IMG/VR virus record: IMGVR_UViG_3300029267_004179
Location: 40,020-104,019 of that record
Source of the DNA: a virus
DNA length: 64,000 nt
Reading direction: 5' to 3' (one strand)
Below, one piece after another: positions 28,446-45,216 of this stretch. The number at the start of each line of letters is the position of its first letter. Positions within the stretch are counted from its first letter, which is position 1. The notes beneath the pieces are model-generated. The model saw only the letters and a program-made list of their open reading frames with translations. It was not told the DNA's origin and made no database searches. A program made the translations under genes and the position numbers.

Positions 28446-28705
28446 TGGGTTTTAATTATAAATATTATAGAAGCAGATACAAGCCAAAAGTTGTCAGTGA
28501 ACTTCCGAAAGACATGAGGTATATTACTGTGAAAGAGGCAGCTGACTATTACGGTGTTACAAGTCAAACTATTCGTCATTGGTATTTGTCCGGCAAATTA
28601 ATATCGGTGATGTATAACCGGAAGATTTTTGTCAGGGTATCAGGATCAATTAATGATATGTTAGGATTTGTGTCTAAAAAGGATATCAGACCTGGCGTTA
28701 TATAA
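28445..28705 (+). CDS. Excisionase/MerR-type HTH DNA-binding protein
   Basis: ITVKEAADYYGVTSQTIRHW..SGKL. Confidence 0.8.
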   Translation: MGFNYKYYRSRYKPKVVSELPKDMRYITVKEAADYYGVTSQTIRHWYLSGKLISVMYNRKIFVRVSGSINDMLGFVSKKDIRPGVI

Positions 28706-28720
28706 GAATTTTGCCGCTTT

Positions 28721-28803
28721 ATTTAGCTTGTATTAAACGATCTAATAAAAACTAATACCTATATATAGGGTAAAAATTTTATAGGCCTTAAAACGGAAAT
28801 AAG
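28721..28803 (+). repeat. Dispersed intergenic element, copy 4 (core CCTATA)
   Basis: TATTAAACGATCTAATAAAAACTAATA-CCTATA-TATAGGGTAAAAATTTTATAGGCCTTAAAACGGAAATAAG. Confidence 0.95.
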
Positions 28804-28925
28804 ACAGCTTTGCTGTTCAAACCGGACTTAAAGATGATAAATTGCTTAAAATAGGCTAAATTATGTTTTTTTTGATTATTTGTTAAAATTTATGTAAAAA
28901 TATAAAAATTTTTTATTCAATGATT

Positions 28926-28956
28926 AGGCGCTGTTATTCAGCGCCTTTTTTATTTT
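28926..28956 (+). terminator. Intrinsic terminator
   Basis: AGGCGCTG-TTATT-CAGCGCCT followed by a T-run. Confidence 0.8.
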
Positions 28957-29139
28957 CAAAGATAATGAGAGAAAATATATAAAAAAAGTTTTCATAAAAG
29001 CATTATATCATTGTTATCACTTGATAAAAATTTTTACAGTTTTCCGATAATCAATCATAAGCTTGGATTTTAGATGATTATCCGGTTTTACTTTTCCGCT
29101 GTATATTATAAAAAGGAACCTAAGTTTTATGATCTTTTA

Positions 29140-29540
29140 CATCGTCGAGTACGTTGAGGGGCTGGCAAGAGGATTGGCCGGATAAAATACCTTATAAAAA
29201 ACACCCCAAGAATTCAAACTCACTTGATGCCATCCGGGAAAAGTAACCAAGCGGGCCATAACTTAACCTTAAATTTTAAGGTTAAGCCTTTCAGGGCTGC
29301 GGAGACGAAATATGGAAGTCTCTTCCTGATAAGCCAAAAATCAGCCAAGAAAACGGGGAAACCCGATAAGGGCTGGGCGCCAAGGTGAAAAATTCATGTT
29401 GACCTATATATCTGCAAACCAAAGATTGGATTTCATCTCCATTATAACCAGCACGAATCAAGTAATGCTGCAGGAATTATCCTTTGGGCGGCATACCGCA
29501 TTGAATCAAGTAGATGTGCAGGAGCATATAGGTCAACAGC
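29140..29540 (+). ncRNA. Candidate structured leader or small RNA
   Basis: ORF-free. Stems: CATC..GAGT/ACTC..GATG, CTTAACCTTA/TAAGGTTAAG, CGGG-GAAA-CCCG and TGTTGACCTATAT/ATATAGGTCAACA, the last enclosing two hairpins with a GAATCAAGTA loop. Confidence 0.55.
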
Positions 29541-29546
29541 AATAAG

Positions 29547-29630
29547 GGATGATTTATCATCCCAACTAAGCTTTTGTCTTTATATAAAGGACAGAAGTTT
29601 AGTTGGGTTTATAAGGCATTTTTATAAAAC
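29547..29630 (+). promoter_or_regulatory. Three overlapping hairpins upstream of an RBS (putative RNase III site or switch)
   Basis: GGGATGA/TCATCCC overlaps a ~21-bp stem CCCAACTAAGCTTTTGTCTTT/AAAGGACAGAAGTTTAGTTGGG, which overlaps TTTATAA/TTATAAA. Confidence 0.55.
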
Positions 29631-29654
29631 TTTAACTTTAATTAGGAGGGAATT

Positions 29655-30008
29655 ATGTCTGATAATAAAAATGATATTAGTATAATAGATGCTATAGGTT
29701 CTTTAAGGCCTTTCACAGAAGGTGATTGGCAAGGGTACAGTGGAGCTGAAGGCGACAATCCATTAATTGCTGAAATTGGCAGTTTCATCTTTATTATCGA
29801 TGAAGCTGGCATCCAGGTAGATTATGTCCATGATTTTGATGAAACTGATGAAGATGGAGAACCCATTCTTGGAAGTCCTTGGGATGAGAGGTTTTTGTCC
29901 TTGGGCACTCAGTGTGTTAGCATCGCTGTTTTCTTTGAGATTTTCCGACTTATAAATAGCGAAGGCATCACTATGAGTGATGCCTTGGATAAGCTGAACT
30001 TTAAATAA
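29655..30008 (+). CDS. Acidic hypothetical protein (probable first early gene)
   Basis: AGGAGG RBS. Confidence 0.7.
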   Translation: MSDNKNDISIIDAIGSLRPFTEGDWQGYSGAEGDNPLIAEIGSFIFIIDEAGIQVDYVHDFDETDEDGEPILGSPWDERFLSLGTQCVSIAVFFEIFRLINSEGITMSDALDKLNFK

Positions 30009-30040
30009 TATGAATGATATAAGCAGAAAATGGAGGAGAT

Positions 30041-30259
30041 ATGAGGGAATTTGAGAGGCTGAGCCATATGATGACAGAGGAGTTTCATTTAATAGACTGC
30101 GGAACATTTTATGAGACAACTGATAACAGATTTGTTGGTTACCCGCAAGGGCCAAATCAAAATGATGGGTTGCTTGTGCTTGATCGTAAAATGGATAAGT
30201 ATGTTGGTTTTTTCCAGGACGTGAAAGAAGCCAACTTTGCTGTAAATTTAATTGAATAG
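30041..30259 (+). CDS. Hypothetical protein
   Basis: GGAGG RBS. Confidence 0.65.
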   Translation: MREFERLSHMMTEEFHLIDCGTFYETTDNRFVGYPQGPNQNDGLLVLDRKMDKYVGFFQDVKEANFAVNLIE

Positions 30260-30267
30260 GAGGCAAG

Positions 30268-30663
30268 ATGAAATTAAAAAAGAAGACAAGCCCTAAAATC
30301 AGCAAGAAGGAATGGGCAAGGATGCTTGCCCTTGTTGACTCAGCAGCATCTTTAAAAGTTGAGGTTGACAGCCTGAAAAATACTTTGGAGGATATGAAAG
30401 GCACTCTGAAGGAATTTGCAGCTCGTGCCAAAGTAAAGAAAATTAAAAGCAAAAATTATACCGCTGCTTTTAAGGACGGAAAAAAGACAGAGATTGACCC
30501 TGAGCTGTTTTATGATGAGGTAGATGATATTGATGATTTTATTTCGTCAATATCGGTGAAGGTGACTGAGGCAAGGGAAGTATTGTCAGCAAAAGCGATT
30601 GATAAAATTGCATTTGTGGAAGTTAAGCCATATAATTCTGTTTCTTTTAAATTTATCGATTGA
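30268..30663 (+). CDS. Coiled-coil hypothetical protein
   Basis: AGGAGG RBS. Confidence 0.7.
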   Translation: MKLKKKTSPKISKKEWARMLALVDSAASLKVEVDSLKNTLEDMKGTLKEFAARAKVKKIKSKNYTAAFKDGKKTEIDPELFYDEVDDIDDFISSISVKVTEAREVLSAKAIDKIAFVEVKPYNSVSFKFID

Positions 30664-30694
30664 TGTCTATTTTGAAAGTATTCTGGTTAGATAG

Positions 30695-30755
30695 CACCGA
30701 AACAGCCGCAAGGCTGTCTATCATGGGTGGTTCCATGGTACTGATGAGGTAGCCA
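30695..30755 (+). ncRNA. Type II hammerhead ribozyme 1
   Basis: ACC-GAAA-CAGCC[GCAA]GGCTG-TC^-TATCATGG[GTGGTT]CCATGGTA-CTGATGA-GGT; full core; GUC cleavage after 30718. Confidence 0.92.
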
Positions 30756-30845
30756 AATAAAATATAAAGTTTGACAAACTGAAAATAATGTTTAAAACAG
30801 CTTTCGATGGTATTGAACCGCACTATTAATAAAAAGGAGGATAAA

Positions 30846-31055
30846 ATGGTCTTCGCAACTTTTAATACGATCAATGGGAAAAGGTCTGGAAGGGTCATTC
30901 AAGCCCATTCCAAGTCCATTATTGTCCAACTGTGTTCTTTTAAAAGGAACAAGATTACCAGGATGCATCAGATCATCCCGGAAAAAGTAATCACTCGGCA
31001 TCTGGAAAAACACAGAGTAAAAATATATGATGAGAAGGTGATCCCCATCAACTAA
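30846..31055 (+). CDS. Hypothetical basic protein
   Basis: AAGGAGG RBS; start adjusted from 30807. Confidence 0.65.
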   Translation: MVFATFNTINGKRSGRVIQAHSKSIIVQLCSFKRNKITRMHQIIPEKVITRHLEKHRVKIYDEKVIPIN

Positions 31056-31057
31056 AA

Positions 31058-31118
31058 CACCGAAACCGGGCTTGTCCCGGTCGTGGTAGGGTTGTGCCTA
31101 CCGCCTGATGATGTAGCT
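31058..31118 (+). ncRNA. Type II hammerhead ribozyme 2 (G10.1 to U variant)
   Basis: ACC-GAAA-CCGGG[CTTGT]CCCGG-TC^-GTGGTAGG[GTTGTG]CCTACCGC-CTGATGA-TGT; the first stem II pair is broken. Confidence 0.85.
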
Positions 31119-31143
31119 GAATGAATATAAAAGGGAGGATATT

Positions 31144-31379
31144 ATGAAAAAACGAAGGCTATATGTGGTTAGAGGGTCCGAAGACGGCATCGTAGGTGTT
31201 TACACCAACATCAAGCTTGCTTGGGAAAAGCCATTAAGGGCTTGAATGGTCATACCGGAAGTTATGCGGAAGCCGTGGTAATGCTTAAAAAATCACATTA
31301 TTTCACAGTTGAGTAAAAAGTCCCTGAAATGGGAGTCAAAGCAATATACTATATCAGTCTTCATTATTTAAATGAATAA
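31144..31379 (+). pseudogene. Frameshifted/nonsense small gene
   Basis: GGAGG RBS; MKKRRLYVVRGSEDG..AWEK, then continues in the -1 frame (AIKGLNGHTGSYAEA..) with an internal TAA. Confidence 0.45.
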
Positions 31380-31406
31380 GTTTAAAAAACTATAAAGGAG
31401 GTAAAA

Positions 31407-31637
31407 ATGGCATTCAGAATCCTAATTCATGATGATAAAATTGGTGGAGTCGAAGACGTTCTGGAGATGGATTTGGACGTGGCACTAACTCCCAAAGGAC
31501 AACTCACCGCATGGCTTCATCGACGCATTGTCAATGAAATCAAAAAAGTGGCAGAAGTGGCCGAAATGAGTTCAAACCAAAAATGGTTTAAAAAGGCAAG
31601 AAGGACAATATTGATTGAACCGGCAAGCGGAAAATAA
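31407..31637 (+). CDS. Hypothetical protein
   Basis: AAGGAGGT RBS. Confidence 0.7.
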   Translation: MAFRILIHDDKIGGVEDVLEMDLDVALTPKGQLTAWLHRRIVNEIKKVAEVAEMSSNQKWFKKARRTILIEPASGK

Positions 31638-31638
31638 A

Positions 31639-31699
31639 CACCGAAACGGCCGCAAGGCCGTCGTGGTAGGGTTGTGCCTACCGCCTGATGAGGTAGCCA
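31639..31699 (+). ncRNA. Type II hammerhead ribozyme 3
   Basis: ACC-GAAA-CGGCC[GCAA]GGCCG-TC^-GTGGTAGG[GTTGTG]CCTACCGC-CTGATGA-GGT; cleavage after 31662. Confidence 0.92.
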
Positions 31700-31732
31700 A
31701 ATAAAATACAAACAATATAAAAGGAGGATATT

Positions 31733-33148
31733 ATGAAGAAGGCTGATGACATCACAAGTTATTTGAGAGCTGGATTCAGTGCTTTCTGGGTAACTACTCA
31801 AGAGCCAAGAAGGGCTGTTGAGGTGCTGACTGAGAAGATTGAGCAATTTGTCCGGAAGGATGGTGGCAAATACAGGATTGGCAATTGGAACTGTCTTGGT
31901 GGTGATCCTGTAAAGGCCTTGTCTATCAATGGTGATTTTAATGTAAAATTCTTGATGAACTATCATTGGTTCATCAAGAAACCACCTGTTGTGCAGACAA
32001 TTCAGGATAACATAGAAGTCTGGAAAAATCATGGCAATGCTATCATAGTTGTTTCTCCTGTGATGGATATCCCCATTGAGCTTGAAAAGGATTTTGTACC
32101 TTTGTCATTGGAGCTGCCTGATGAAAAGGCCATTAAAAAGTCTTTCCAATACATTTCTGAGAGTACAAACGGGGCTGTTAAAGTGCCAGATGGGACTGAT
32201 TTTGATAAGCTTGTGTCTGCCTCAAAAGGGCTTACACAGCTGGAATTAGAAAACACATTGGCCTTGTCTGTTGTGAAGAAAAGAAATTTTGATAGTGAGG
32301 TCATTTCTGATCATAAAGCCAGCATCGTTGAAAAAAGTGGACTTTTGGAGATAGTTAAGCCAACTATTACATTTGATGATGTGTGTGGTTATGACCAGAT
32401 TAAACAGTTTGTCCTTTCTACTATCCGCAAGCCTGAAGCAAAGGGCATCTTAATTCTTGGTCCACCTGGATGTGGTAAAACGATGTTCATGAATGCTCTT
32501 GTCGGCACTACCGGGAAAATAGGACTTAACCTGAATTTTGGGAAGATGTTCTCAAAATATCAGGGTGAGACTGACCAGAACATCGAAGCAGCTATAAAGG
32601 TGATTGAGGCCATCGGTGACTGTATTGTGATGGTAGATGAGTTTGAGAAGCAATTTGCCGGTGCTGCTTCTACCGGTGAAACAGATAGTGGTGTGACCAG
32701 AAGGGCAACTGGCCGATGGTTGAGGTTTATGCAAGAAAGGCCAAAAGGTGTTTATATCATCGGCACATGCAACTCATTTAGAGGCATGCCGCCTGAGTAT
32801 CTGAGGCCTGGAAGATGGGACAGCAGCCCTTTCTTCATTGATCTTCCGAGTCAAGGCGAAAAAATGGAGATCATGGCATATTATTTGGGGAAATACAGGC
32901 TGGCTGTCGATGGGAGAACACCAAGACTGCCGGCCATGGATAAATGGACTGGAGCTGAAATTGAAGCGTGCTGCCGTAATGCTTCAATGATGGAGTGCTC
33001 TGTGGCTGATGCATCAAAGTTCGTTTTGCCTCAGGCAAAAACTATGGAAGATGAAATTTCCGAGCTGAGGACATGGTCGAAAGGCAGGACAATTCCAGCA
33101 ACCATTGTGATAAAGAAAAAGAAAAAGAAAAGGGTAATTGACACATAG
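31733..33148 (+). CDS. Ycf46-like AAA+ ATPase
   Basis: Degenerate N-terminal AAA (T.EP.R, IPIELEKDF); active GPPGCGKT, VDEFEK, TCN and LRPGRWD; C-terminal LR.W..GR..PA. Confidence 0.85.
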   Translation: MKKADDITSYLRAGFSAFWVTTQEPRRAVEVLTEKIEQFVRKDGGKYRIGNWNCLGGDPVKALSINGDFNVKFLMNYHWFIKKPPVVQTIQDNIEVWKNHGNAIIVVSPVMDIPIELEKDFVPLSLELPDEKAIKKSFQYISESTNGAVKVPDGTDFDKLVSASKGLTQLELENTLALSVVKKRNFDSEVISDHKASIVEKSGLLEIVKPTITFDDVCGYDQIKQFVLSTIRKPEAKGILILGPPGCGKTMFMNALVGTTGKIGLNLNFGKMFSKYQGETDQNIEAAIKVIEAIGDCIVMVDEFEKQFAGAASTGETDSGVTRRATGRWLRFMQERPKGVYIIGTCNSFRGMPPEYLRPGRWDSSPFFIDLPSQGEKMEIMAYYLGKYRLAVDGRTPRLPAMDKWTGAEIEACCRNASMMECSVADASKFVLPQAKTMEDEISELRTWSKGRTIPATIVIKKKKKKRVIDT

Positions 33149-33158
33149 TTACAGTTAG

Positions 33159-33248
33159 GTGACCAGGTTTTCCTGGTCACCTGTTAAGGTAGCAAGCTGA
33201 AATCTTTGTTCTTGCTACCTTAACAGGTGATAGCTGTTTACTATCAAC
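33159..33248 (+). promoter_or_regulatory. Three overlapping hairpins upstream of an RBS (second instance)
   Basis: AGGTGACCAGG/CCTGGTCACCT overlaps the perfect 20-bp TCACCTGTTAAGGTAGCAAG/CTTGCTACCTTAACAGGTGA, which overlaps TGATAG/CTATCA. Confidence 0.6.
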
Positions 33249-33274
33249 ACTTATTCATATAAAATGGAGGGATT

Positions 33275-33475
33275 ATGGCTAAAAAAGTGGAGATTATTCT
33301 TGGCAAAGACGGCTCTGTAAAGATTGAGGCCTTTGGGTTTAAAGGCTCATCTTGCGAAGAAGCTGTGGAATTTTTGAAAAAGACATTGGGTGATCCTGAA
33401 ACGCACGATTTGAAATCCTCCTATTATGAGGATGATTGTTTAGTTAATGGGCTGCCCAGCGGTTATTGCGGTTAA
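33275..33475 (+). CDS. DUF2997-family protein
   Basis: I.KDG.V.IEA.GFKG.SC......L...LG.......YY. Confidence 0.8.
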   Translation: MAKKVEIILGKDGSVKIEAFGFKGSSCEEAVEFLKKTLGDPETHDLKSSYYEDDCLVNGLPSGYCG

Positions 33476-33502
33476 TGCTTGACTATTAATTGGAGGGACA
33501 AT

Positions 33503-33895
33503 ATGAGCCATATTAGCACATACAAAGCAAAAATTAAGGACATCGATGCTTTTATTCAAACACTTTCTGATGCCGGATATGCATGGCGTCAAGGGGATTT
33601 GACAGTCAAGCAGTTTGGCCGTAACTGGATAAAGTGTCATACTGCTTTCAAACTGCCAGGCTGGCAGTATGAGATTGCAATAAACAATGAAGGTGAGCTG
33701 CTCTATGATCACTTTGGCAGCAAGCCTTCAGTGGTTGTCAATGGCAAATCCGTTAGAACAATGGACATTTTAGGGAAGACAATCCAAGATTATAATGAGC
33801 AATCTATTGTGTCGCATGCATGGATGGAATGTGATAATGTTACCACTGAAGATTTGGAAGGTGGTGACAAAAGGGTTGTTCTTGAATGGCTGTAA
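33503..33895 (+). CDS. DUF1257 (Ycf35-like) protein
   Basis: MSH.ST.K.KI.D.......L...GY and Q.Y..... pattern; start adjusted from 33479. Confidence 0.75.
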   Translation: MSHISTYKAKIKDIDAFIQTLSDAGYAWRQGDLTVKQFGRNWIKCHTAFKLPGWQYEIAINNEGELLYDHFGSKPSVVVNGKSVRTMDILGKTIQDYNEQSIVSHAWMECDNVTTEDLEGGDKRVVLEWL

Positions 33896-33942
33896 TGGAT
33901 GTCTTATAGCTGTGAATGTTTCAGATCGGAATGGAGGGTAAA

Positions 33943-34860
33943 ATGAAGAGAATCAGAAGAACTCAGGTGATGGAGAAGTTTGATCTTTTTGAAAGAGGGG
34001 TGCTTATTACCTTGGACACGAGATGTTGGGGAGCATCAGCCAAGGTGGATGACCTGACGATGAAAGGCCTTTTGAAGGAAGATAAGGCTATGTTAGCTGA
34101 TGAGATAGTTGCAGTTCAATCTCTTGTGCCTGACAAGTCAAAGCTTGCTTACATATGGCATGTCCGTGACGAGGCAAGGCGATTTGCCCAAACCAATTCG
34201 ATGCCTTCAACTATTCGTGGTCACATGTTTATTCCGAAGGATATGATTGAGTATGTTGACCATGGGCTGGCTGACCGGGAAAGAAGATTCTGGATGGGTG
34301 TGGATGAATTTCTGTTGGAATATGAAGGGCTGAGACTGAAGAAGCAAATTGAAAGCCCAGACTTGTATGATCAGTCAAAATATCCTGATGCAAATAGGAT
34401 GCGACAGCGGTTCAAGTTCAGATGGACATTCCGGATGTTTGATGTGCCAAGTTCTGAAACAGGGTTATTATCGCCGGAAATGTACAAGGCTGAAGTCAAA
34501 AAATTCAAGCAGGATATGGTTGATGCCAGAGACAGTATCATTTCCATAATCTCAAAAGAGTTTTTGGAAAGGATTGATTCTTTGAGGAAGCAGTGCAGCG
34601 GTGATAAGATTAGCACAGCAACTGTTGACGGGCTGAATAATTTTCTTGAAAAGTTTGATAATGTTTGGGGCGGATTCTTTGCTCATAAGCAGCTCAAGAG
34701 CATGATCAAGGATGTTAAAGCATACATGGCCGGAACAGAAGCAGATATGCTCCGGTATGATGAATCATTCAGGTCAATGGTTGGGAAGAAAATGGCTGAA
34801 GTTGGGAAGGACTTCAAAGCTGCCGGTGGTGCCCGTATCGGCAGAAAGCTGGACATATGA
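33943..34860 (+). CDS. DUF3150-like helical protein
   Basis: WGAS.K, G..FIP, F...Y, YP......RF.F.W pattern; ends RKLDI. Confidence 0.5.
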   Translation: MKRIRRTQVMEKFDLFERGVLITLDTRCWGASAKVDDLTMKGLLKEDKAMLADEIVAVQSLVPDKSKLAYIWHVRDEARRFAQTNSMPSTIRGHMFIPKDMIEYVDHGLADRERRFWMGVDEFLLEYEGLRLKKQIESPDLYDQSKYPDANRMRQRFKFRWTFRMFDVPSSETGLLSPEMYKAEVKKFKQDMVDARDSIISIISKEFLERIDSLRKQCSGDKISTATVDGLNNFLEKFDNVWGGFFAHKQLKSMIKDVKAYMAGTEADMLRYDESFRSMVGKKMAEVGKDFKAAGGARIGRKLDI

Positions 34861-36128
34861 GTGCGATGAAACCAGTTGTTCCTGGATTGGATAGGATGAT
34901 CTATAAGATAGCCCAATTCTGGATCAAATTCATTCCGAACCGGTCCTGTTTAGAGTTTGAGGATTTGGTTCAGGAGTGCTATCTGGAGCATGTTAAGGCA
35001 CAGAAAAGGTTTGACGAGTCAAAAGGGGTTAAATATACCACCTATCTTTATAAGGCTTTGTGGTGGCGGTGTTCAGCTATAGCCAAAACAGAGCTGAAAT
35101 ATAAAAATAGGGAGTTTGACAACCCATTGCCTCAGAAACCTTCTGTGCCTGAGGATGATTATCTTGTTTATGAGGGCATTTGGGCATTATCACTTCTTAG
35201 CAAGTCCTTTGCCGACATGATAATTAACGGTATTCCTGACACGCTTTTTAAACATCTTCGTCAGCATGCTGAGGATATCAAGGAAAGGAATGGCTGGAAG
35301 AATGGGTTTAGGACTTTTAGACTAAATAAGACTATTGTTGAAAGATTTTTTGGAATATCTATCAGCAAACTGAGGCACTGTTACTATAATTATAATAGAG
35401 ATGATTATGAAGTTAACTTTTTAACAATGGAGGGGTTGAAAATGGAAGAAAAAAGATTAAAGGGTTTTGCCAGCGCAGTTGGAATTTCATGGGATGATTC
35501 TGTGGACATGCAAGAACAGATTTTAGATGCCATAGATGATATGGGTGAGAAGGAGTGGAAGGAACTTCCTGAAAACATCCGTGCCTGGTCGAATAAGAAA
35601 AACAAAGAGGCTGCCGCCGCCGCAAAGGCAAGCAAGCCGACAAAAGCCAAGGACAAAGATGAGCTGAAAAAGGCCAAAGACGGCGCCAAGGAAAAGGCTG
35701 AAAAGAAAAAGGCTGTTAAAAAGCAGTCAAAGGAATATCCTACCAGATTTAAAGAGGGCACAAATGGCCATCAAATCACTGCGTTTGTTGAGGAAGCTGG
35801 CAGTGATGGGATCAGCATCACTTCTCTTATCAAGAAATGTGAAAAGGCAAAGGTGAACAGCCCTAATGTTTCAGGAAGGGTGCGGCATGTGATGCGTATG
35901 TGCACAACGATTGAAGTTGATCCACATTGCGGTCTTCTGCGTAAAGATAATGATTTATTCTTTTGGGTTGGCCCGAAGTCTGAAACTGATGCCGAGAAGC
36001 CGGCAAAACCGGCAAAGAAAGAAAAGAAAGAAGAGAAAAAACCGGCAAAGAAAGAAAAGAAAGAAAAGAAAGAAGAGAAAAAACCGGCAAAGAAAGAAAA
36101 GAAAACGAAAAAATTCAAAAAGAAGTAA
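34857..36128 (+). CDS. Sigma-70 region-2-like protein read in frame into a Lys-rich DNA-binding protein (internal start at 35442)
   Basis: EFEDLVQE.Y......RFD.SKG.KY.TY.Y; internal GGAGG RBS plus ATG at 35442; C-terminal KPAKKEKKEEK repeats. Confidence 0.7.
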   Translation: MSAMKPVVPGLDRMIYKIAQFWIKFIPNRSCLEFEDLVQECYLEHVKAQKRFDESKGVKYTTYLYKALWWRCSAIAKTELKYKNREFDNPLPQKPSVPEDDYLVYEGIWALSLLSKSFADMIINGIPDTLFKHLRQHAEDIKERNGWKNGFRTFRLNKTIVERFFGISISKLRHCYYNYNRDDYEVNFLTMEGLKMEEKRLKGFASAVGISWDDSVDMQEQILDAIDDMGEKEWKELPENIRAWSNKKNKEAAAAAKASKPTKAKDKDELKKAKDGAKEKAEKKKAVKKQSKEYPTRFKEGTNGHQITAFVEEAGSDGISITSLIKKCEKAKVNSPNVSGRVRHVMRMCTTIEVDPHCGLLRKDNDLFFWVGPKSETDAEKPAKPAKKEKKEEKKPAKKEKKEKKEEKKPAKKEKKTKKFKKK

Positions 36129-41122: not shown

Positions 41123-41501
41123 TAATCAGTTTACAGTAGCTGTAGATTTTGATGGCGTTATAAATAATTATAGCCGATATAAAGGCAAAGGTGTATTTGA
41201 AGAGCCTGTGCCTGGAGTTGTTGAAGCATTTAGAACTATGAAGGCTGCAGGTTGGACTATAATAATTAATACAACAAGGTCGGAAACCTGGCTTATTGAG
41301 GAATATTGCAAGAAACATGGAATTTTGTTTGACTACATAAACCATAACCCTGCTAACAATGTGCTACATTTGTCTCCTACAAAAGTCATAGCAGATGTGT
41401 ATGTAGATGACAGGAATGTAAGGTTTGATGGCAATTGGTGTAAGGCTATAGATGAAATAAGGAATTTTAAGCCTTGGTATAGGAGGAAAGATGAGGAATA
41501 A
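41115..41501 (+). CDS. HAD-superfamily phosphatase
   Basis: VAVDFDGVI, INTTR and K..ADVYVDDR. Confidence 0.9.
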   Translation: MTNNQFTVAVDFDGVINNYSRYKGKGVFEEPVPGVVEAFRTMKAAGWTIIINTTRSETWLIEEYCKKHGILFDYINHNPANNVLHLSPTKVIADVYVDDRNVRFDGNWCKAIDEIRNFKPWYRRKDEE

Positions 41502-44500
41502 TCAGTGGTGCCATTTGCATTTACATACTCAATATTCTGTTCTTGATGGATACGGATCAGCGGAACAATATGCTGAGAGGGCAAAAGAGATAGGCTTTAC
41601 CCATATGGCTATTACTGATCATGGCAATGTGGATGGAGCAATACAGTTTCAAAAGGCTTGTGAGGCTAATGATATAACTCCTATTATTGGTTGTGAGGCA
41701 TATATTGTTCCTGATATGTCCAACCGTAGTAAAGAGAAAAGATATCACATTTCATTGTTCGCCATGAATAGTAATGGTTGGCAAAATATTCTCAAGATGC
41801 TTACTGTTGCGAACATGCAAGGCTTTTATTATAGGCCAAGGATTGATCCTGAGCTATTGCTTGAGCACTGCGACGGAGTACTTGTCTCAACTGCTTGTTG
41901 CTATGGTTATTTAAGAATGCCTAATGGGGCTGATCTTATTAAGGCGCTTAATGAAGTGACGGAAGTTGTGCTTGAAGTTATGCCTGTTGATATGAAGGAG
42001 CAAAGAGAAGTTAACAGATGGTGTCTTGACTTGTCCGAATCCACTGGTATCCCAATCATAGCCACTAATGATTGCCATTATATTCTTAAAGACCAAAGCA
42101 AACTTCAGGAAACACTTCTTGCTGTGCAAAGGAAAGTCAAATGGAATGACCCGAACAGATGGAAATTCGATATAGATGACTTATACTTAAAGACTGCTGA
42201 TGAGATGGTTCCAGGCTTGGTTAAACAAGGAGTAGAAAGGGGCTTGGCAGAGCAAGTATTGAGGAATACAATGCTCATAGCTGAGAAATGCAGTTTCAGA
42301 ATAGAACAAGTGCCTGTTACTTTGCCTGATATCCACATCCCAGGCTATGAAGAACTACCTGAAGATGACCAGCTGACACATGTTACTTTAGATGGCCTCA
42401 ATAGACTATCAGAAGTTCATAGCTATATTGATGATGATATTGATTCCTACTATGATAGGGTTGAAGATGAGCTTTATCATATCATCAATCTTGGTTTTTC
42501 CAGATATTTTTTGATAGTTTGGGAGCTGATTGACTGGTGCAAGAAAAACAACATACTTACTGGGCCGGGAAGAGGTAGTGTAGGTGGCAGTCTTGTTGCT
42601 TATTGTCTTGGCATTACTGCTGTTGATCCTATTAAGTATGGACTTGTATTCACAAGGTTCATTTCACCTGCAAGAATAGATTTGCCGGATATAGATATGG
42701 ATTTCGAAGATAGGCATAGAGGGAAGATCAGGAAGCATCTTGAGTATAAGTATGGCAAATACAATGTTATAGGTTTGTCTACCTTTGCGAAAATGAATGG
42801 TAGGTCGTGTTTAAGGGATGTGGCAAGAGTATTTGATGTTCCATTAGTCGATGTAGGGGCTGCTGCAAAATCTATAGTTGTTAGATCAGTTGGTGATTTT
42901 AGATCATCTTTTACTATCACAGATGCGTTTGATACTTTTGAAGATGGTAAGAAATTTAAAAAGAAGTATCCAGAAGTGACAAGGATATCTATAGCTATGG
43001 AGGGTCAAATCCGTGGGACAGGCAAACATGCTGCTGCTATGTGTGTTTCAGCTAATGATGTAAGATCAGGTGTGCATAATAGTCTTTCCTATAGATCAAA
43101 AGAACTTCTTGCAAATTGGGGCAAGGAAGATGCCGAGTATATGGGGCTGATGAAGCTTGATGTGCTTGGGCTAAATGCTCTTACAGTGTTGGCTGAGTCA
43201 ATAAGCCTTGTTAAGGATAGACATGGCATAGAAGTTGATCTTGAGACTATACCTTTGGATGATGAGAAGGTTTATTCAGAGTTTTCAAGAGGCAATACAG
43301 TTGGTGTGTTCCAGTTTGCTGGCCAGGGAGCAATTAAACTGTGCCGAGAAATTGGAGTGGAGAATTTTGACGAACTTGTAGCTGTAAATGCTTTGAATAG
43401 GCCTGGTCCTTTGAGGTCAGGAATGACTACTGATTATACAAATATCAAACATGGGAAGAAGAAAAAGCCAAATCTTCATCCCATAATGAATAGGATAACA
43501 GAAAACACTCAAGGCATGGTGATATATCAAGAGCAGATTATGTTTATTATTTCAGAACTTGCTGGGTTGCCTTGGAGAACTGCGGATGTTGTTCGGAAAG
43601 TAATATCCAAAGGAAAAGGTGAAGAGCAGTTCATGAAATTTAAGGATATGTTTGTTGAGGGATGTGTGAATAAAGGTACTATATCAAGGAAGGAAGCAGA
43701 AAAGGCTTTCAAATCTTATAAACATGCCGGATCATACATGTTCAACAAATCTCATGCAGTTGAATACAGCCTTATTGCTTACTGGGAAGCATGGTTCAAA
43801 ACTCATTATCCGGTAGAATATATGGTTGGAATATTATCTTATGGCCCAACTCATAAAGATAAAAAGCATATTCATGTTAATGAAGCCAAAAGGCTTGGAG
43901 TTAAGCTTGCACTACCTAACATAAACAAATCTATGGCAAAGTTATGGACAGCGGATGAAGAGGGCAATTTGAGGATACCACTTTGTGAAATTAAAGGCAT
44001 CGGTCCTGCTGCTGCAAATGTTATTGTGTCTGAAAGAAAAAAGAATGGTGATTATACATCAAAAAATAATTTTGAGTCAAGGGTTGAAAAGAGGAGATGT
44101 AATAAAAGGGTAAAAGAGCTGCTTGATAAGGTCGGTGTTTGGGAAGAAGATAGTGATGCACTCCTTGATGATAAAAGGCTTGAGGAATTATCTCTTTATT
44201 TTGATTTTGACCTTTCTAATGATCCTATGTTCAGATATAGGAAAGCAGTCAAAAAGATTTCAGAGCATGTAGACTTGGTCAAGCTTAAAGGTGTCAGCAC
44301 CAAACAGGTCAAGGAGAAGAGTTTTTATTTTGGATATATAGCAAGTATCAAGTATGGGTATAAGGAAAAAGTAGGGCAAAACAAGAAAGATGATGCTGGC
44401 CTTGGTGGCGTGTATGCCTATTTTGAGGATAGCACTAATTCAACTATGTTGACTTTTAATCCAGAGCTATACAAGAATAGAAAGGATGAGATAGAACATT

Positions 44501-45216
44501 GTGCTGAGAGGTGGGCTCTTGTCAGGGCAAATTCGCCTTTCGGAACAGACAGCCTTTACTGCAATGAAATCTGGTTTGCTGATGATATTTTATCTGGAAA
44601 ATTGGATGATTCAGGGATAGCTTTGGCAGATGAATATGATTACAGCAAATCAGATTTGGTAGTAGATGGGGTTGCTTTATCCGACTGTCAAGCTTGTCAG
44701 TTTAGGCAGGAGTGTAAAGCTCCTGTTTATCCTACCTATGGAGATGTCAATGCAATGATAATTGGTGAGGCTCCAGGCAAAGATGAGGACAGAGTTGGCA
44801 AAGGGTTTGTTGGCGGCAGCGGTAACTTATTGTTTGATAAGAATCTGCACAAGATTGGTGTTAGAAGGGAGCACTGCCATATAACAAATGTGAATAAGTG
44901 TTGGCCGAGTAAATCAAGGACTCCGAAGAAAACTCAGGTGAATAAATGCAGGAAATGGCTTGACAGAGAAATTGAGATAGTAAAGCCATTTGTTATACTT
45001 GCACTTGGTAATACATGCATGAAGTATTTCCTTGGAGAAGATTCTGGCATTATGGCCAAGAATGCATCTACTGAATGGAATGATAGGTATAATTGCTGGA
45101 TATGTTGGGGCATTCATCCTGCTTCTGTTCTCAGGTCACCAGAAAATAGAACAATGTTCAAACAGGCATTGGACAATTTTGCTCATGTGTTTAGCACCAT
45201 AGGGTTTGGTTTATAA
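41491..45216 (+). CDS. dnaE: DNA polymerase III alpha (PHP + Pol) fused to a C-terminal family-4 uracil-DNA glycosylase
   Basis: HLHLHT.YS.LDG, TDHG, GRGS, PDIDMDF, KLDVLGL and FNKSH; C-terminal CQAC, GEAPG..ED, FVG.SG, TNV.KC.P and HPA. Confidence 0.95.
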   Translation: MRNNQWCHLHLHTQYSVLDGYGSAEQYAERAKEIGFTHMAITDHGNVDGAIQFQKACEANDITPIIGCEAYIVPDMSNRSKEKRYHISLFAMNSNGWQNILKMLTVANMQGFYYRPRIDPELLLEHCDGVLVSTACCYGYLRMPNGADLIKALNEVTEVVLEVMPVDMKEQREVNRWCLDLSESTGIPIIATNDCHYILKDQSKLQETLLAVQRKVKWNDPNRWKFDIDDLYLKTADEMVPGLVKQGVERGLAEQVLRNTMLIAEKCSFRIEQVPVTLPDIHIPGYEELPEDDQLTHVTLDGLNRLSEVHSYIDDDIDSYYDRVEDELYHIINLGFSRYFLIVWELIDWCKKNNILTGPGRGSVGGSLVAYCLGITAVDPIKYGLVFTRFISPARIDLPDIDMDFEDRHRGKIRKHLEYKYGKYNVIGLSTFAKMNGRSCLRDVARVFDVPLVDVGAAAKSIVVRSVGDFRSSFTITDAFDTFEDGKKFKKKYPEVTRISIAMEGQIRGTGKHAAAMCVSANDVRSGVHNSLSYRSKELLANWGKEDAEYMGLMKLDVLGLNALTVLAESISLVKDRHGIEVDLETIPLDDEKVYSEFSRGNTVGVFQFAGQGAIKLCREIGVENFDELVAVNALNRPGPLRSGMTTDYTNIKHGKKKKPNLHPIMNRITENTQGMVIYQEQIMFIISELAGLPWRTADVVRKVISKGKGEEQFMKFKDMFVEGCVNKGTISRKEAEKAFKSYKHAGSYMFNKSHAVEYSLIAYWEAWFKTHYPVEYMVGILSYGPTHKDKKHIHVNEAKRLGVKLALPNINKSMAKLWTADEEGNLRIPLCEIKGIGPAAANVIVSERKKNGDYTSKNNFESRVEKRRCNKRVKELLDKVGVWEEDSDALLDDKRLEELSLYFDFDLSNDPMFRYRKAVKKISEHVDLVKLKGVSTKQVKEKSFYFGYIASIKYGYKEKVGQNKKDDAGLGGVYAYFEDSTNSTMLTFNPELYKNRKDEIEHCAERWALVRANSPFGTDSLYCNEIWFADDILSGKLDDSGIALADEYDYSKSDLVVDGVALSDCQACQFRQECKAPVYPTYGDVNAMIIGEAPGKDEDRVGKGFVGGSGNLLFDKNLHKIGVRREHCHITNVNKCWPSKSRTPKKTQVNKCRKWLDREIEIVKPFVILALGNTCMKYFLGEDSGIMAKNASTEWNDRYNCWICWGIHPASVLRSPENRTMFKQALDNFAHVFSTIGFGL

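Follow-up and report, generated by a model that had tools for sequence, protein, structure and literature searches.

The DNA analysed here (hereafter the window) makes up the right-hand 64 kb of a complete IMG/VR virus record of 104,019 bp. All genes from 23963 to 57283 of the window lie on the + strand. Within this run of genes we identified a block in which small open reading frames (ORFs) alternate with hammerhead ribozyme sequences. Its order is as follows: ORFs of 117, 72 and 131 aa, hammerhead copy 1, a 69-aa ORF, copy 2, a split ORF and a 76-aa ORF, copy 3, and an ATPase gene (Table 1). The ribozymes lie in the replication module, with genes for a DnaB-like helicase, a SNF2 helicase, a primase and an HTH protein 5' of the block, and genes for a DUF2997 protein, an unknown protein, a DUF3150 protein, a sigma-like protein, ThyX and a Pol III alpha-type polymerase 3' of the ATPase.

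Table 1. Hammerhead elements and adjoining genes of the block (positions in the window)
Feature	Position	Strand	Remarks
131-aa ORF	30268..30663	+	no known family; last gene before copy 1
Hammerhead copy 1, type II	30695..30758	+	RF02276 59.4 bits, E 9e-10
69-aa ORFan	30846..31055	+	between copies 1 and 2; AGGAGG at 30835-30840
Hammerhead copy 2, type II, probably impaired	31058..31122	+	RF02276 43.4 bits
Split small gene	31144..31316	+	3' of copy 2; frame change
76-aa ORFan	31407..31637	+	TAA ends 1 nt before copy 3
Hammerhead copy 3, type II	31639..31702	+	RF02276 49.4 bits
AAA+ ATPase, 471 aa	31733..33148	+	first gene after copy 3; AGGAGG at 31722-31727

The three co-oriented copies lie inside 1 kb, each separated from the next by one or two small ORFs. 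Copies 2 and 3 begin 2 nt and 1 nt, respectively, after a TAA stop codon, and 31 nt separate the stop codon of the 131-aa ORF from copy 1. On the 3' side of every copy there is an A-rich spacer, followed by AGGAGG or GGGAGG placed 5 nt before an ATG. The arrangement described in the original prediction (a ribozyme that follows a stop codon and precedes an A-rich spacer and a strong ribosome-binding site, RBS) was therefore recovered at all three joints.

The ATPase belongs to Pfam PF00004 (E 3e-18) and PHROG 8638. The small ORFs (those starting at 30846, 31144 and 31407, and the three upstream of copy 1) had no Pfam or PHROG family, no tblastn match in GenBank phages and no match in ~1 Mb of hammerhead-bearing viral loci; a blastn comparison of the region 28500-36000 with GenBank phages was likewise negative. 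The split gene consists of a 33-aa frame ending at 31245 and a 31-aa frame that runs from 31224 in the -1 frame, the switch being located near GGGAAAAG (31224-31231). This gene is either a pseudogene or the carrier of an A_AAG slippage site. Its frame change and the defects of copy 2 (see below) are identical in contigs of three studies, with no indel there, and copy 2 together with its split gene may represent a decaying cassette.

The phage is present at marine sediment and seawater sites. A search for RNA runs containing 29600-33200 gave none, and the DNA contigs that cover the three copies contain no joints, indels or base differences. In three DNA runs, the contig to the left of stem I of copy 2 (30063-31109) had ~0.6 of the word depth of the right-hand contigs, and in two runs this left contig ends near 30063-30076. 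The drop in depth may reflect strain variation, and contig depth cannot rank the parts of the region.

No + strand terminator was found between the copies. A reading of the hairpins as intrinsic terminators was rejected, since they have no U-run on the + strand and the terminator-like matches lie on the gene-less - strand. A strong terminator-like hairpin is present at 28926-28946, followed by ~700 nt devoid of ORFs, before the ribozyme-bearing block. Further downstream, the Pol III alpha-type polymerase (41491-45216; 1241 aa, with PHP, NTPase, finger and HhH domains) carries a C-terminal domain of the uracil-DNA-glycosylase superfamily (residues 1085-1229).

Structure and inequality of the three elements

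The elements were analysed with the Rfam covariance model Hammerhead_II (RF02276), whose curated gathering score is 37 bits. All three copies exceed this score (Table 1), all lie on the same strand as the genes, and Hammerhead_II was retained for them in Rfam clan competition. With the default Rfam filters only copies 1 and 3 were reported, and permissive filters added copy 2. A search of the whole 104,019-bp genome revealed no hammerhead beyond these three. The pattern CGAAA..GTC..CTGATGA with correct spacings occurs three times in the 64-kb window, compared with 0.01 occurrences expected from shuffled sequences.

The core of a hammerhead was defined as C3 U4 G5 A6 N7 G8 A9, G12 A13 A14, the pair A15.1-U16.1, and any base except G (H17) at the cleavage site. 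None of copies 1-3 has lost any of the 11 core nucleotides or the A15.1-U16.1 pair, and each contains CUGAUGA, GAAA, the closing A..U pair and the GUC triplet. The topology is that of type II, i.e. loops cap stems I and III, and the 5' and 3' ends lie in stem II. From 5' to 3', an element consists of a stem II strand (ACC), G12-A14, a 6-bp hairpin III, C17, an 8-bp hairpin I, CUGAUGA, the second stem II strand and a tail. In copy 1, stem II is ACC/GGU, stem III has 6 bp and a GCAA loop, stem I has 8-9 bp, and the minimum-free-energy fold recovers all three stems. The core and the three stems of copy 3 are also canonical. C17 corresponds to 30718 (copy 1), 31082 (copy 2) and 31662 (copy 3), and the predicted cut just 3' of each of these nucleotides agrees with the cleavage positions originally proposed.

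Differences between the copies preserve pairing, as had originally been noted for stems I and III. In stem I, both bases of six of the eight pairs are changed when copy 1 is set against copies 2/3, and stem III is different in each of the three copies; all of these stems remain paired. In an alignment of 15 copies from this phage, its relative G001 and a third phage, 96.6% of cells are standard pairs (68% in column shuffles and 35-46% with slid partners), and double changes were found in 10 of the 14 pairs. The presence of three type II hammerhead sequences between small phage genes is thus confirmed.

Copy 3 is a mosaic of the other two, with a stem III like that of copy 1 and a stem I like that of copy 2. 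Over the first 23 nt, a single compensated pair sets it apart from copy 1. Then comes a 32-nt tract (31660-31691), comprising GUC, stem-loop I and CUGAUGA, which is identical to 31080-31111 of copy 2. The next 17 nt are those of copy 1, and the leader beyond them resembles that of copy 2. In three runs, the assembly graph represents the 32-nt tract as a repeat node of its own.

The original prediction treated the three copies as near-equivalent, a view that did not stand. Copy 1 contains the suggested pseudoknot between loop I (UGGUU, 30728-30732) and the 3' tail (AGCCA, 30751-30755), with 4-5 bp, and it is the only copy to do so. For this feature we required at least 4 bp between loop I and the tail, a level at which most, not all, type II members have a pseudoknot. 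Copies 2 and 3 have an identical stem-loop I, with UUGU in the pseudoknot register. Opposite this loop, the tail of copy 2 (GCUG) produces a central U-U mismatch, leaving a best pseudoknot of 3 bp, and the tail of copy 3 (GCCA) a central U-C mismatch (31673 opposite 31698), so that neither copy exceeds 3 contiguous pseudoknot bp. Since a hammerhead with the loop UUGU on another viral contig has a matching tail (GCAG), the mismatch cannot be attributed to a misreading of the register. Among 95 distinct viral type II hammerheads, loop I forms a mean of 4.46 contiguous bp with its own tail and 3.22 with the tails of other copies; this preference indicates that the class-typical pseudoknot is real in that set.

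Copy 2 has a second defect. U31112 (10.1) stands opposite C31061 (11.1), giving a U-C mispair that adjoins the core, whereas the pair 10.1-11.1 is G-C in copies 1 and 3; copy 2 is the sole failure at this position among the 15 aligned elements. An alternative stem II register with an extra U after A9 (as in relative L136) was also considered for copy 2 and did not restore pairing. A 10.1-11.1 mispair was used as a criterion for rejecting candidates by Perreault et al. (2011; PMC3088659), who also found that pseudoknot mutations slowed a tested type II ribozyme 20-fold to >100-fold. We infer an order of activity of copy 1 > copy 3 > copy 2, copy 1 being predicted to cut fast, copy 3 at a lower rate and copy 2 poorly or not at all. 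Given the broken pair of copy 2 and the unmatched pseudoknots of copies 2 and 3, the three proposed cuts may amount to one fast, one slower and one poor or absent.

Hammerheads of related phages and the site before the ATPase gene

The related complete 95-kb phage G001 (locus L035) encodes an ATPase with 45% identity to that of the window, as well as DUF2997, unknown and DUF3150 proteins, and carries 15 type II hammerheads in 12 kb (14 Rfam matches and one found with a custom model). This array occupies positions 2050-14263 of L035, on the minus strand. Nearly all of its copies abut the stop codon upstream, and the Shine-Dalgarno sequence (SD) and ATG of a small gene follow 20-30 nt downstream; several copies have an identical stem III combined with a different stem I and pseudoknot. 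With the exception of one zinc-ribbon protein, the genes of the array are ORFans.

From the 15-copy alignment we derived a model and ran it on 676 kb of ATPase-encoding loci. A hammerhead was found directly before the orthologous ATPase gene in L131, L132 and L136, in addition to G001, at 43-49% protein identity; five diverged lineages, including the phage studied here, therefore share this arrangement. In L131 and L139, hammerheads are located directly after the ATPase gene. The copies of the relatives that precede the ATPase covary, with stem II being ACC/GGU, GUC/GAC or GCC/GGC, and their pseudoknots differ. Some variants of the core were noted, namely an extra U between A9 and G10.1 (L136, 633-699), UUGAUGA in place of CUGAUGA (L132, 24-92) and CCGAUGA (G001; L035, 2050-2127).

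Four of the five rows with a hammerhead group in a single 7-row subclade of the ATPase tree, and the phage of this study is placed in a neighbouring polytomy; the distribution requires three hammerhead changes, against a mean of 4.8 when shuffled. No hammerhead was found in the 11 other relatives with sufficient upstream sequence, and a search of hammerhead-less relatives for other Rfam ribozyme classes returned nothing at E < 0.1. The existence of close relatives of the ATPase module without a ribozyme implies that cutting is dispensable for that gene set. Several of the hammerhead-less relatives (for example L129, L130 and L138) have, at this site, a spacer of ~100-136 nt with a GC-rich tetraloop hairpin and no U-run. 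These hairpin sites are at ~4900-4997 in L129, ~4870-4997 in L130 and ~4900-4988 in L138, and the tetraloop is UUCG or GAAA. Because a ribozyme is present in some lineages and a hairpin in others, the gap before the ATPase gene looks like a conserved RNA-structure or boundary site.

Gene order in this region is not uniform. It is DUF2997, unknown gene, ATPase and DUF3150 in L124, L125 and L035, whereas in the phage of this study (31733-34860) the ATPase gene comes first, right after copy 3.

The layout of viral hammerheads was also surveyed. Of 104 viral type II hammerheads, 74% start no more than 6 nt from the end of an open frame of at least 40 codons (5.5% at random), the commonest stop-to-ribozyme distances being -1 and 0. 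In ~70%, an SD-led start codon lies 20-40 nt downstream.

Proposed division of a polycistronic transcript and competing explanations

We propose, with moderate confidence, that the elements are cis-acting ribozymes which divide the polycistronic + strand transcript of the replication/accessory module without the participation of host nucleases. The proposal builds on the identity of the motifs, their covariation, the gene context and the conserved position before the ATPase gene, and it is from these that cleavage itself and the fates of the products are inferred. Hammerhead cleavage leaves C17 with a 2',3'-cyclic phosphate and the following base with a 5'-OH. Each copy would fold during transcription and the 2'-OH of C17 would attack the adjoining phosphate, so that the RNA would break after 30718 and 31662, and after 31082 weakly or never. 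The upstream product would carry the stem III hairpin at its 3' end, terminated by a 2',3'-cyclic phosphate ~25 nt beyond the stop codon. This distance should be enough for normal termination of translation, and the hairpin end would be a poor substrate for 3' exonucleases. The downstream product would begin with a 5'-OH flush with the stem I hairpin, and would retain its own A-rich spacer and strong SD. As the two products are joined by a stem II of just 3 bp, they are expected to separate, which would make the cut effectively irreversible.

The predicted pieces are an RNA extending up to 30718, a fragment covering 30719-31662 and an ATPase message starting at 31663; if copy 2 works, the central fragment would be resolved into 30719-31082 (364 nt) and 31083-31662. 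The outcome would be a set of hairpin-capped messages of a single or a few genes, translated and degraded independently, with no need for host RNase III or RNase E. Whether the new ends stabilise or destabilise the messages is host-dependent. The 5'-OH product of the glmS ribozyme, for example, is degraded faster in Bacillus, by RNase J1. The predicted accessibility of the SD in cut versus uncut RNA rose only relative to a -300 nt context and did not rise relative to a -150 nt context, a difference that is not robust. The cutting of transcripts into cassettes is the standard hypothesis for hammerhead clusters (PMC3088659; PMC6765202), and this hypothesis fits the anatomy of the block.

The inequality of the copies also bears on a different explanation, namely that they are genuine hammerheads which have largely become decaying relics, with only copy 1 or none cutting usefully, and that their stable hairpins matter for stability or spacing. 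We regard this as unlikely. It draws on the state of copy 2 (broken 10.1-11.1 pair, mismatched tail and a frameshifted gene behind it), the unmatched loop common to copies 2 and 3, the plain GC-rich hairpin in the same gap of several hammerhead-less relatives, and the absence of ribozymes from many relatives. Against decay speak the 11 core nucleotides and the A15.1-U16.1 pair, which are whole in all copies, the stems, which are still paired despite many double changes, and the position before the ATPase gene, which has been kept with a full core at 43-49% protein identity.

The shared sequence of the copies was originally suggested to drive cassette shuffling. In this explanation, the joints formed by a ribozyme and an SD serve as patches of DNA homology, at which small accessory genes are gained, lost and swapped by recombination. 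Several features are compatible with this: copy 3 is mosaic, 32 nt are identical between copies 2 and 3, the leader ATATAAAAGG..AGGATATTATGAA follows both of these copies, the genes between the copies are ORFans, and relatives have from 0 to 15 copies and a variable gene order in the ATPase region. Against shuffling, no cassette was seen in two contexts in ~1 Mb of hammerhead-bearing viral loci and no contig fuses copy 2 to copy 3 with loss of the intervening 580 bp. Moreover, the mosaic is based on few positions, for which duplication and drift account equally well, and 32 nt of identity is short for efficient homologous recombination. We therefore consider a role in shuffling improbable.

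The two functions might also be combined, the ~100-nt unit of ribozyme and RBS being a portable cassette boundary that acts as RNA cutter and recombination patch together. This is a speculative notion, to which we attach little confidence. If true, it would account for the presence of three copies here, 15 in the sister phage and none elsewhere, and in copy 2, with its defects and the frameshifted gene behind it, we would be seeing a cassette on its way to decay.

Cleavage might instead be conditional on translation of the upstream gene, with a terminating ribosome covering the stem II strand, GAAA and part of stem III and thereby gating the cut. The closeness of stop codon and ribozyme, which are within 6 nt of each other in 74% of the 104 surveyed viral elements and 1-2 nt apart in copies 2 and 3, is in keeping with such a mechanism, but tight packing is usual in phage genomes and explains the abutment alone, and there are 31 nt between copy 1 and the stop of the 131-aa ORF; we judge this reading very unlikely. 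Hardly credible is the rejoining of doubly cut cassette RNAs to circles by the reverse reaction of the ribozymes or a host RtcB-type ligase, a possibility raised by Perreault et al. (PMC3088659) and compatible with the 5'-OH and 2',3'-cyclic phosphate that a released cassette would bear and with the stem II (ACC/GGU) common to the copies, through which any 5' half could pair with any 3' half, because a search by these authors for circular or spliced products was negative, ends 364-580 nt apart would probably not be held together by a stem II of 3 bp, and copy 2, which both small circles require, looks impaired.

Relation to known systems

The proposed division of the transcript has a counterpart in phage T7, in which, according to Dunn and Studier, RNase III sites reportedly lie between the early genes. 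In both cases a polycistronic transcript would be cut between genes into gene-sized mRNAs with 3' ends in protective hairpins. T7 relies on a protein enzyme of the host that leaves a 5'-phosphate and a 3'-OH, whereas self-cutting in the block would give a 5'-OH and a 2',3'-cyclic phosphate. A parallel may also be drawn with the synthetic ribozyme insulators of the RiboJ type, said to have been introduced by Lou et al. in 2012. In these, too, a hammerhead ahead of the RBS strips off the upstream RNA context and leaves a fixed 5' leader. RiboJ is an engineered derivative of a plant satellite RNA ribozyme and is employed as a single unit, whereas the copies described here are natural, of type II and arrayed.

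Clusters of hammerheads around single prophage genes, including a type II form with a pseudoknot, were described by Perreault et al. (2011; PMC3088659). Triple hammerheads occur, for instance, around ardA in Agrobacterium tumefaciens, and the triple arrangement cleaves both in vitro and in E. coli; the same authors proposed that long phage transcripts are processed in this way (PMC3088659). As in those clusters, several gene-oriented hammerheads of the window bracket one or two small genes, the identities of which vary. The present case differs in that the host molecule is an uncultured 104-kb phage of lytic appearance, that two of the three copies have no matched pseudoknot and one of them breaks the 10.1-11.1 pair, and that the position of one copy, before an AAA ATPase gene, is conserved in diverged relatives.

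Three type II hammerheads near phage-like genes of Desulfovibrio vulgaris were found by cyPhyRNA-seq to cleave in vivo (PMC8782182). They belong to the same Rfam family and have a similar gene neighbourhood, and two of them are ~300 nt apart. The D. vulgaris elements are experimentally active, whereas cleavage by the copies of this study is a prediction. The array of G001 provides a further parallel, as its ribozymes are also placed between a stop codon and an SD with ATG among small ORFans, although the window has only three copies.

The function of bacterial and phage hammerheads was still described as open in a review published in 2019 (PMC6765202). Phage hammerhead clusters have been known since 2011, and what is added here is a series of graded defects, a conserved ribozyme position before an ATPase gene and a sister phage with 15 copies. 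A canonical copy, a copy with a pseudoknot mismatch and a copy with an added stem II defect are present on one transcript, which makes the block a compact natural test set. Furthermore, since the ribozyme before the ATPase gene has been kept in some relatives and a plain hairpin is found in several others, these phages, together with the 15-copy sister, make the role of cutting testable by comparison.
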